In this document: piece by piece, positions 7,435-9,995 of the stretch
Numbering within the stretch: position 1 is the stretch's first letter
Layout: every line of letters starts with the position of its first letter
NCBI RefSeq assembly: GCF_001458695.1
Contig: NZ_LN885086.1
Location: 720,001 to 752,000, forward strand
Direction of reading: 5' to 3'
Origin: Candidatus Nitrospira inopinata
GTDB taxonomy: Bacteria; Nitrospirota; Nitrospiria; Nitrospirales; Nitrospiraceae
Length of the DNA stretch: 32,000 nt
Notes under the pieces: model-generated
What the model was told of the DNA's origin: nothing
The model's database searches: none
Seen by the model: only the letters and a program-made list of their open reading frames with translations
Translations under genes and position numbers: made by a program

Positions 7435-8172
7435 TCAATATGCGCTTGTCTGCACCGGAACCACACCCCTCCGCTGCTCGGTCGACTTGATACGAATCTT
7501 GAAGACGACTCGACGCATGGCTTCACGTTCTTGGGCTGTAAGCTCCCGCTCAGGTTTGCCGATGAGTTCTGGAGGAGGCTCGCGGAGGCCTCTTCCATTG
7601 ACAGAGGTCATATTGAGAAGACAATCTCTCTTCTCCTCTTCTGTTTCCTTCAACACAAACAAGGTATGTTCCATCACTGACCGTGCACGATCCTGGCTGA
7701 GAGGGATATTGTGTTCGTCGGGATCCTTTCCAAGCGGGGCTGTGCGATCAGTGTGGCCCTCAATCACGATGGTCTGAATGTTTTCTAATTGGTCCTGGCA
7801 AATAACCGAGGTAAGTAATGGCACAAACCCCCTTAGGAATTCTTTTGCCTCCTCGCTAAGGTTTGATTTGTCAGGCTCAAACCTCAGGAGAGGATCTCGT
7901 ATCACTACTTCGATTCCAAGAGGATCCTTAGGATCTTTAGCCACTTTCACTTGGTGTAACGATTCATCCTGTGAACTCATGAGCTTTGCAACCAGGGTAT
8001 CAATGACGTCTTGTCTGATGTCCTGACTGACCTGACGAGACGCAAACTGCGTGCGGATGAATAGCGTCAGCAGCAATATGAAAATCACGGCCAAAGACGT
8101 CATGAGGTCTGTGATCCCCATGACAATCGTTTGATCCTTAGCAGTTTTGTCGCGAGTTACTCGAATCATCAC
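7435..8172 (-). CDS. zorB: MotB-like stator/plug protein with OmpA-type peptidoglycan-binding domain (ZorB-like)
   Basis: 245 aa. There is a single N-terminal TM with the channel Asp (IVMGITDLMTSLAVIFILLLTLFI, D22). The C-terminal OmpA-like motifs are IVIEGHTDRTAPLG, LSQDRARSV, NGRG and AMRRVVFKI. The start is GTG at 8172 or ATG at 8169. Either one overlaps the zorA stop (TGA at 8171-8169). Confidence 0.85.
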   Translation of the reverse strand: MMIRVTRDKTAKDQTIVMGITDLMTSLAVIFILLLTLFIRTQFASRQVSQDIRQDVIDTLVAKLMSSQDESLHQVKVAKDPKDPLGIEVVIRDPLLRFEPDKSNLSEEAKEFLRGFVPLLTSVICQDQLENIQTIVIEGHTDRTAPLGKDPDEHNIPLSQDRARSVMEHTLFVLKETEEEKRDCLLNMTSVNGRGLREPPPELIGKPERELTAQEREAMRRVVFKIRIKSTEQRRGVVPVQTSAY

Positions 8173-9995
8173 TCAATACGCTTGACTAGCTTTTCAAGAG
8201 GTCCAGTGACCTGTTGAAGCCCATCGCGTACCATATCGCTACTGGCCTTTAACTCTTGCGCCGCCTGAGAAAATGATTCATCAAATCGCGTGAGTTGTTG
8301 TTCTGTATACTCTTGAACCACCGACGAATACCGTTCCATGCTATGGGTGAGTTCCGTAAGCACGTTGCCGAGTCCTGTCTCAACAGTATGGAACACAGTT
8401 TGGAACTGTTTGAGGGTTTCTGTCTGAACAGCGTGGATCTCTGCGAAGCGGGTCAGCTGTTGGGCTAACCGCTCGGCGTTCTGGCCTGCTTGCTCCTGAA
8501 GCTGCCGCATTTCCTGCACAGTAGCTGCGAACGAACGTTGGCCCTCCAGGAGCGTATAAGCTGCCTGTTCGACTTGTTTGAGAGCCTGTTGGCCTTCAGT
8601 TACCATGGCGCGGAACGACTCCAAAGCTTCGTTGAGGACAGATTTAGTCTGCGCAAGCTGTTGGCTGGCTGATCGATGCTCATCAAGTGCAGCCATGAGG
8701 TTCATGGCACCCTGCTCGGTCCATTTAGCCGTTCGCTGAAGTACGATATCGACAGTCTTGGAGAGATGGGCTTGTGAGTGTTCCTGTGCCTCGCGGATTG
8801 TCGTTGTTACAGATGCCAAGAGTTCATGGGCTCGACGTTCATGTTCAGATCCCACATTCTCCAGTCGAGCAAGCACGGACCCCACGGTTTCTCGCAATTG
8901 TCCTATCTGGTCACTCACGGCTCGATTTTGGGCCGCCATGGAATCGTCCAAACGTTGGATGAACGTGGCTAAGCCAACTCGGCTTTCTTCGCCTGCTCGG
9001 TTAAGCTCCTCCATCCGATTACTAGCAGAAGCGAGGACCGTTTGCAGTTCGGTAAACTGTGTCTTGGTCGTCCCTTCAAGACCTTTCAGAAATTGAGCGA
9101 TAAGCTCCTTAATGGCATCGTTATTGTCTTGGCGCTGTTGGGTGGCCAAGCGCTCCACAACCTCCACCATGCGGCGAAGAGTTGGGCCGAGGCTTTCAGA
9201 AATCCCTTCTTTCAGGCGGGTTGAAAGATCAACCCCAAAATGACGAAACGCCGTGGTCTGCTCTGCGAGATTTTGATGCATGTCTTCGAGAATGTGTTCG
9301 CTCGTCCTGCGACTGAGTAGCCTGTTAAGGGCATGGGTGAATCGATAGTAACTATTACTTAGGCCATGGACCAGCGGTTTCTCAAGTAAGAGGTAAACGG
9401 TCGCACAAGATAACGCTACGATGGAGGTGAGGAACTTTCCTGCTAATCCGTTGATAAGGCCAGAAATTCCCTCAATGCGAGAGGATTCTTCATCGATGTT
9501 GACTTGCAATAGTCCTGCGAAAATAGCTAAAAAAGTTAATAATAAGCCGACACCTGTCACGATTCCAGGAAAGCTGGAGTAGAAGAACAAATTGATACGT
9601 TGATTGATCAGATTGTCTTCAGTAAAAAACTCCTCTGCTGGACGGGTATTATAAATCTTGCCCGGTGAGTCTTTAACAAGTACTGTCTCTCGAAACTCTT
9701 CCCATGCCTGGGCGAGCGGCTCAACTTTACCGAAAAGACCGTCGAGACGGTTAAGCCCTTCTGCATCCAGCACAGAATGCTGATGCCGGAGCTTTTGGAG
9801 TTCTGTGGCGACCACTGTAAGAGGTTGCCTGACCATCCACACTTTCACTACCATCCACGTAAGCACAGCGAGCGTGACCACAATGATGCCCGCTGAGCCG
9901 ACCCAACTGAGGCCAGGAGCAGTTACAAGCCCTATGGGATTAGCATCAGTGAAGGGATGAAGAAGTAAATCAACCATTGTGCTCATGGCTGGCAT
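8169..9995 (-). CDS. zorA: MotA/ExbB-like ion-channel membrane protein with a long C-terminal helical tail (ZorA-like)
   Basis: 608 aa. Three hydrophobic segments lie at about aa 29-55, 135-163 and 178-205. The MotA/ExbB-type core reads FPGIVTGVGLLLTFLAIFAGLL...GLAGKFLTSIVALSCATVYLLLE. About 400 aa of Q/E/L/A/R-rich, proline-poor sequence follows, suggesting a coiled coil or long helix. In-frame ATGs occur at 9995, 9986 and 9977. The one at 9986 forms an ATGA overlap with the upstream ORF stop and has GGAG 10 nt upstream. Confidence 0.8.
   Translation of the reverse strand: MPAMSTMVDLLLHPFTDANPIGLVTAPGLSWVGSAGIIVVTLAVLTWMVVKVWMVRQPLTVVATELQKLRHQHSVLDAEGLNRLDGLFGKVEPLAQAWEEFRETVLVKDSPGKIYNTRPAEEFFTEDNLINQRINLFFYSSFPGIVTGVGLLLTFLAIFAGLLQVNIDEESSRIEGISGLINGLAGKFLTSIVALSCATVYLLLEKPLVHGLSNSYYRFTHALNRLLSRRTSEHILEDMHQNLAEQTTAFRHFGVDLSTRLKEGISESLGPTLRRMVEVVERLATQQRQDNNDAIKELIAQFLKGLEGTTKTQFTELQTVLASASNRMEELNRAGEESRVGLATFIQRLDDSMAAQNRAVSDQIGQLRETVGSVLARLENVGSEHERRAHELLASVTTTIREAQEHSQAHLSKTVDIVLQRTAKWTEQGAMNLMAALDEHRSASQQLAQTKSVLNEALESFRAMVTEGQQALKQVEQAAYTLLEGQRSFAATVQEMRQLQEQAGQNAERLAQQLTRFAEIHAVQTETLKQFQTVFHTVETGLGNVLTELTHSMERYSSVVQEYTEQQLTRFDESFSQAAQELKASSDMVRDGLQQVTGPLEKLVKRIE

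Follow-up and report, generated by a model that had tools for sequence, protein, structure and literature searches.

The helical tail of ZorA in a type I Zorya operon of Candidatus Nitrospira inopinata

The zorABCD operon and the layout of ZorA

The stretch of DNA considered here, called the window, comprises 32,000 nucleotides (positions 720,001 to 752,000 of contig NZ_LN885086.1) from Candidatus Nitrospira inopinata, whose genome is a single 3.295-Mb contig. The minus strand of the window carries a complete set of the genes zorA, zorB, zorC, and zorD (2567-9995), which, in the list of open reading frames (ORFs), are arranged as A-B-C-D and either overlap or lie a short distance apart. Every gene matches its PADLOC type I model, by which the operon is classed as a complete type I Zorya system. 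The element in question is the C-terminal part of ZorA, encoded at window 8172-9368 on the minus strand (residues 210-608). It is very probably the cytoplasmic tail of ZorA, a long helical coil, within a complete type I Zorya anti-phage operon. From about residue 232 to residue 608, the tail is one long amphipathic helical region that is conserved at its base and its tip and variable in between.

The zorA gene (8169-9995, minus strand, stop codon included) is listed as an ORF of 608 residues (P0001), which sets the residue numbering throughout. It is a PADLOC ZorA1 protein that matches 12 ZorA1 models (best E 1.5e-33), one of which, PDLC00601, aligns with residues 24-595. Sequence and fold both match the PDB entries 8qyd, 8qyk, and 8vvn, and among named proteins, its nearest relatives come from Nitrospira. 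The true start is likely the ATG at 9986 (M4), giving a protein of 605 residues. A GGAG precedes this ATG by 10 nt, the stop codon of the preceding ORF overlaps it in the sequence ATGA, and its methionine (MST...) is the one at which close relatives begin. One homologue that is 80% identical (P0012, 705 residues) has a 97-residue N-terminal extension, signal-peptide-like and then unrelated in sequence, which probably results from a misassigned start or from a fusion on a short metagenomic contig. A plus-strand ORF at 8758-9096, within the tail region, is without support and was taken as spurious.

ZorA can be divided into four parts. The motor part (residues 1-231, window 9303-9995, minus strand) consists of three transmembrane (TM) helices and a membrane-proximal cytoplasmic domain, and it is predicted by AlphaFold2 with a predicted local distance difference test (pLDDT) score of 90-98. 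Hydropathy places the TM segments at about residues 30-56, 142-168, and 186-204, in agreement with a preliminary description that had put the end of the last one near residue 205. The tail base (residues 232-330, window 9006-9302, minus strand) is conserved and is delimited by the conservation profile, by the phmmer alignment to 8qyk, and by phase analysis. It is also found in a family of short-tail relatives. The tail middle (residues 331-520, window 8436-9005, minus strand) is poorly conserved and holds most of the length changes in the family. The tail tip (residues 521-608, window 8172-8435, minus strand) is again conserved, and AlphaFold2 draws residues 496-607 as a single helix.

The composition of residues 210-608 (L 11.5%, E 10.5%, Q 10.3%, A 9.8%, T 8.8%, R 7.8%, S 7.3%) agrees with the preliminary reading of a tail rich in these seven residues, and all five peptides quoted there are present. 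The same reading had the tail almost free of proline and glycine, which holds for proline, with 2 of 399 residues (P271 and P599). It does not hold for glycine, which is only mildly depleted (19 of 399 residues, 4.8%, near the family median of 4.95%). Two database matches of the tail were rejected as homologs. The Pfam Apolipoprotein match at residues 297-411 scores 20.6 bits against a cut-off of 90 and reflects the 11/22-residue amphipathic periodicity, and the PDB match to cortexillin (E 0.029) is compositional.

The remaining genes of the operon complete the system. ZorB (7435-8172, minus strand, 245 residues) matches PADLOC ZorB1 (E 1.5e-32), and its start overlaps the stop of zorA (GTGATG). 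Asp22 of the protein lies in a TM helix, and the match to an OmpA-type domain for peptidoglycan binding (PF00691, E 1e-7) exceeds the family cut-off. Asp22 would correspond to D26 of E. coli ZorB, an equivalence read from the sequence by position and not by alignment. ZorC (6027-7409, minus strand) is a PADLOC ZorC1 protein with an EH_Signature domain (PF15611, E 2.2e-32, which exceeds the family cut-off). The longest zorC ORF extends to 7598 and begins 164 nt inside zorB. A start at the ATG at 7409 (M64), 25 nt past the end of zorB, is more plausible and would give a protein of 460 residues. ZorD (2567-6022, minus strand, 1151 residues) matches PADLOC ZorD1 (E 1.2e-217) and combines an SNF2 helicase with an Mrr-type nuclease, as its Pfam domains are SNF2-rel_dom (PF00176, E 2.9e-44), Helicase_C (PF00271, E 1.5e-16), and Mrr_cat (PF04471, E 5.7e-12).

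The ORF upstream of zorA (9983-10879, minus strand) encodes 298 residues, which include a nuclease domain of the PLD/NgoFVII type (Pfam PLDc_2, E 1.2e-7). The residues at the end of the ORF are unrelated, and it appears to be what remains of a larger PLD-helicase gene.

Helical periodicity and predicted structure of the tail

The coiled-coil character of the tail was analyzed by Fourier transformation, autocorrelation, phase tracking, and a monomeric AlphaFold2 model. In the hydrophobicity spectrum of the tail, the maximum lies at 3.64 residues and has a power of 150.6, which exceeds every one of 500 shuffles (the 99th percentile of the shuffle maxima is 88.9). Autocorrelation is significant at lags of 4, 7, 11, 18, and 22 residues with z up to 5.0, and the lags of 11 and 18 (z ~5) are stronger than those of 7 and 14 (z ~3). 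The local period changes along the tail, with 3.6-3.8 over residues 210-407 and about 3.5 over residues 408-560. In phase tracking, it lies above 3.64 at residues 234-300, where the base reaches 3.7-3.8, is close to 3.6-3.64 at residues 300-430, falls to about 3.5 at residues 430-520, and returns to 3.62-3.66 at the tip. The family-averaged profile follows the same phase course. Phase tracking shows that the hydrophobic seam drifts but is not lost; it weakens at residues 416-437 and near residue 507.

The preliminary description had spoken of a heptad-like spacing. Such a spacing is present only at about residues 430-520, and the tail as a whole, with its period of 3.64 and its preference for lags of 11 and 18 over 7 and 14, departs from it. 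The period of 3.5 throughout that marks a canonical heptad, left-handed coiled coil is not found. The tail fits a nearly straight bundle, like the solved base of the E. coli tail, and not a canonical heptad coil.

The start of the tail helix proper is placed at about residue 232 instead of residue 205, because the phase of the seam jumps at residues 213-234, between the extension of TM3 and the tail helix, and because AlphaFold2 breaks the helix at residues 227-231. On this placement, the tail would be about 377 residues long.

The AlphaFold2 monomer, calculated from an alignment of 98 homologues, is helical over essentially all of residues 232-607. The pLDDT of 90-98 in the motor drops to 43-62 over most of residues 281-500 and rises again to 69-79 at the tip. 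In a Foldseek search, the top six PDB matches are all ZorA chains (8qyh, 8qyd, 8qyk, 8qyy, and two of 8vvn), with E-values from 4.9e-11 to 3e-8 and TM-scores of 0.64-0.75 normalized to the target (8qyd, 0.68). By sequence, phmmer finds 8qyk, 8qyy, 8qyd, and 8vvn with E-values of 1e-12 to 1e-14. The alignments to the E. coli chains span residues 80-366 or 80-446, and that to the Shewanella chain spans residues 33-421 (E 1.2e-12). MotA, ExbB, and TolQ share the same pentameric three-TM motor fold (Foldseek probability ~1.0 and E ~1e-2 for the ExbB and TolQ chains). The matched ExbB and TolQ chains are only 215-236 residues long and cover about 210-260 alignment columns of the model, which bears out the preliminary remark that such proteins have no comparable appendage.

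The closest characterized system is ZorA from E. coli NCTC 9026 (8QYD), which is the top match in both searches. Both proteins combine a three-TM MotA/ExbB-like motor with a long all-helical tail, and both operons have the order zorABCD. The base period above 3.6 found here is consistent with the right-handed supercoil in the solved first 56 residues of the E. coli tail. In the phmmer alignment, E100 and E103 correspond to E86 and E89 of the E. coli Ca site and are at least 90% conserved in close relatives. L257, L261, I265, and L269 correspond to L250, L254, L258, and L261 of the E. coli core rings. The two proteins differ in that identity is only about 22% in the fold alignment, P271 here aligns with E263 in E. 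coli, and the E. coli tail has 507 residues (70 nm) compared to about 377 residues here (~52 nm by scaling). ZorA from Shewanella sp. ANA-3 (8VVN) forms a 5:2 ZorAB complex with a five-tail bundle. Its tail starts at residue 236, close to residue 232 here, and is 461 residues long versus about 377. The Shewanella structure contains bound Na+ (PMC11890865).

Conservation and length of the tail among homologues

The conservation profile of the tail is uneven, being high over residues 232-330 and 521-600 and low over residues 331-520. Nearly invariant residues of the base include Q246, L257, P271, and F302, and the conserved residues of the tip are F531, F535, L546, D572, A578, L582, V589, and V596. 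The length of the stretch from F535 to L582 is unchanged in 63 of 71 homologues. P271, which lies together with a nearby glycine at residues 264-276 (window 9183 region), hardly varies in either the long-tail or the short-tail family. This site may be a conserved kink or irregularity that directly follows the core leucine rings.

Among 103 long-tail homologues, the part after TM3 has a median length of 436 residues with an interquartile range of 404-449, and the 403 residues counted here fall at the 25th percentile. The preliminary description had noted that the tail is shorter than in E. coli, which is correct (608 versus 729 residues in total). The length is nevertheless ordinary for the family and not that of a special variant, and E. 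coli lies at the long end. Relatives down to 35% identity have no tail insertions or deletions over 400 residues. The close relative P0008 carries a single clean deletion of 7 residues at residue 519, and distant relatives carry insertions of 29, 22, 7, 4, and 3 residues, of which the 22-residue insertion at residue 289 occurs in many homologues. The dominant tail period in 98 homologues has a median of 3.64 and an interquartile range of 3.63-3.64.

The length changes themselves follow this period. Gap lengths cluster at 3/4, 7, 11, 14/15, 18, 22, 25/26, 29, 33, 36, 40, and 44 residues with few in between, so the preliminary proposal to look for heptad or hendecad multiples has a positive outcome, the changes being combinations of 7 and 11. 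Across the 98 homologues, the distance between L257 in the base and L582 in the tip differs from that of the query by -84 to +105 residues, and the commonest class is 40 residues (11 turns) longer than the query ZorA. These differences fit whole turns of 3.63-3.64 residues with a mean cosine of 0.68, compared to at most 0.47 among 2000 random sets, although the leucine anchor columns and the in-phase preference of the aligner favor whole-turn distances once the seam is continuous. The mean cosine is about 0 at periods of 3.0, 3.3, 3.5, 3.9, and 4.0. The homologues are related to each other, and the counts of gaps and distances are not counts of independent events. The quantized distances firmly show that the seam is continuous from base to tip in every homologue, but they do not show independent selection on the register. 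This continuity speaks for a single unbroken coiled coil and not for separate helices with free linkers. Two proteins of similar length to E. coli ZorA, P0129 (730 residues) and P0133 (718 residues), were considered as its stand-ins for the register analysis and rejected as only distant relatives of 8qyd.

A second ZorAB-like pair lies in the same genome outside the window (G000:C1:2702443-2704368, minus strand; L003 8443-10368). It consists of a 413-residue ZorA-like protein, which has only the tail base, and a 227-residue ZorB-like protein with an OmpA domain. ZorC, ZorD, and ZorE were not found near this pair. The ZorA-like protein belongs to a short-tail family of about 100 proteins of ~340-455 residues (most ~400-430), the few named ones of which are from Nitrospirota. 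The short-tail family aligns with the long ZorA only over residues 6-357 (hhalign probability 100, E 3.5e-63). It shares the motor and the first ~125 residues of the tail and is without middle and tip.

The distribution of the two forms was tallied in 61 genomes of the same family, including the unpublished genome G006, which contributes one short-tail match. Long-tail ZorA occurs only in the present genome and in one other (G024, 87% identity). The EH_Signature of ZorC is found only in the same two genomes, close to zorA. Eighteen other genomes of the 61 carry the short-tail form alone and lack an EH_Signature match. Within ~6 kb of the short-tail pair in six genomes, no ZorC or ZorD was detected, and the A-B pair is the only conserved synteny. 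The 61 genomes are kin, so this co-occurrence is a pattern and not a statistical test. As judged from gene content, the joint occurrence of the distal tail and ZorC would fit the published coupling of the distal tail to ZorC and ZorD.

The G+C content is 0.49-0.55 at the Zorya operon and its surroundings (window 2001-16000) compared to 0.58-0.62 further along the window. This contrast, together with the presence of long-tail zorA in only 2 of the 61 genomes, suggests horizontal acquisition.

Proposed role of the tail and competing explanations

In E. coli, ZorA and ZorB form a proton-driven 5:2 motor, ZorA5B2 (Hu et al. 2024, PMC11946911). Residues 223-729 of E. coli ZorA make up a pentameric right-handed coiled-coil tail of ~70 nm. 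The first 56 residues of this tail have been solved and show a right-handed supercoil; the remainder is modeled and agrees with negative-stain electron microscopy (PMC11946911). Four tail truncations all abolish defense, although the motor still assembles when the middle or the tip is deleted (PMC11946911). The preliminary statement that the E. coli tail is essential and that its length matters agrees with these truncations and with the ~70 nm tail (PMC11946911). Co-localization of ZorD requires both an active motor, as judged from ZorB D26N, and the tail tip (PMC11946911). Tail lengths have been surveyed across Zorya types (PMC11946911), and Mariano et al. 2025 assign residues 236-696 of a Shewanella type I ZorA and residues 100-378 of a type II ZorA to the tail (PMC11890865).

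By homology with the solved ZorAB complexes of E. coli and Shewanella, an ion-driven 5:2 motor of five ZorA around two ZorB would form in Candidatus N. inopinata. The five tails would bundle into a nearly straight pentameric coiled coil of ~50-55 nm, and a reach of ~52 nm would follow from 377 residues at the E. coli ratio of 507 residues to 70 nm. Indirect support for the predicted pentameric coiled coil comes from the ring residues L257, L261, I265, and L269, which align with those of E. coli, and from L257 being nearly invariant. Following the model for E. coli, the perturbation of the envelope by a phage would cause ZorB to anchor to the peptidoglycan, and ion flow would turn ZorA together with its tail. 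The tail would then pass a signal to its tip, where ZorC (DNA binding) and ZorD (SNF2-Mrr nuclease) would be recruited to degrade the phage DNA. Phage defense is thus the predicted role of the operon. The function as ruler or mechanical transmission that the preliminary description gave the tail is the published model, which would extend to this protein by analogy.

Several points weigh against this picture. The AlphaFold2 model is that of a monomer only, with a pLDDT of 43-62 over most of residues 281-500, and it contains five short helix breaks (residues 286-291, 308-310, 381-385, 437-440, and 492-495) that could be real hinges. By sequence, the E. coli tail can be followed no further than about residues 366-446, beyond which the comparison depends on profiles of the family. 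The helical base contains the conserved residues P271, G264, and G308 and may carry a conserved irregularity. The quantized distances do not prove a pentamer or the transmission of torque. Even for E. coli, the rotary-signal model is a proposal, and the oligomeric state, the extension, and the reach of the present tail are transferred from solved relatives, as is the predicted defense role in Candidatus N. inopinata. The short breaks and the low mid-tail pLDDT are what would be expected of an isolated amphipathic helix and were not read as hinges; the breaks are likely artifacts, because a lone monomer must bury its seam by folding back.

The main rival to a signal-transmitting coil is a static scaffold, in which the tail would serve the assembly of the pentamer and the docking of ZorC and ZorD at the tip while its length and rotation carry no information. 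Such a scaffold is improbable but deserves the most weight among the alternatives. It would account for the finding that deletion of the whole E. coli tail or mutation of its core leucines perturbs the assembly of the motor (PMC11946911). A conserved base and tip around a variable middle are also expected of an anchor and a docking site joined by a spacer, and the spread of the base-to-tip distance from -84 to +105 residues among homologues speaks against a fixed ruler length. However, the E. coli deletion of the middle kept the motor assembled and lost defense, and ZorD co-localized only with an active motor (PMC11946911). Within the clade, moreover, tail length stays constant down to 35% identity.

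The tail could also fold back on itself into an antiparallel helical bundle, similar to chemoreceptors or apolipoproteins, and then reach much less than 50 nm. The AlphaFold2 monomer has this appearance, with six tail helices and low-confidence joints, and the weak Apolipoprotein match at residues 297-411 (E 3.9e-4, far below the cut-off) and the resemblance that HHpred finds between the end of the E. coli tail and chemoreceptor signaling units (PMC11946911) point in the same direction. Folding back is nevertheless very unlikely. The E. coli ZorAB tail measures ~70 nm in negative-stain electron microscopy and shortens when residues are deleted (PMC11946911), and the monomer breaks are the expected artifacts of seam burial. 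Hairpin bundles would also need paired length changes, whereas the insertions and deletions observed here are single and unpaired (7 residues at residue 519 in P0008, 22 residues at residue 289). A C-terminal 400 residues of low complexity or disorder, with no defined structure, is hardly credible. The biased composition and the low mid-tail pLDDT of the monomer would agree with disorder, but a sharp period of 3.64 that is coherent over ~400 residues and common to 98 homologues would not, nor would a sequence with only two prolines that is predicted to be helical throughout, changes its length in register, and ends in a conserved tip.

With base-to-tip distances that change only by whole turns across the 98 homologues, the angular register from motor to tip, and not only the length of the tail, might be under selection. 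This idea is tentative and rather doubtful. If true, the tail would be a torsionally continuous shaft whose tip faces a fixed direction relative to the motor. The E. coli deletion of the middle (residues 359-592) would then confound length with register: its 234 residues amount to ~64.3 turns at 3.64 residues per turn, so that the register would shift too. A periodicity rule for ZorA was not found in the literature searched, where none of the ten top-ranked of 1,203 papers mentions ZorA, and the words "heptad" and "hendecad" do not appear in Hu et al. (PMC11946911).

These results leave the accepted picture of Zorya unchanged. The tail described here is an ordinary ZorA tail, a feature that has been described before, and its division into base, spacer, and tip is a modest addition to the Zorya field. 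The period of 3.64 together with the register-preserving length changes gives a rule for designing clean length mutants. In the family to which Candidatus N. inopinata belongs, type I Zorya with a full-length tail is sporadic (2 of 61 genomes), and the natural tip-less ZorAB pairs without ZorC fit a distal tail that acts as the effector-coupling part.

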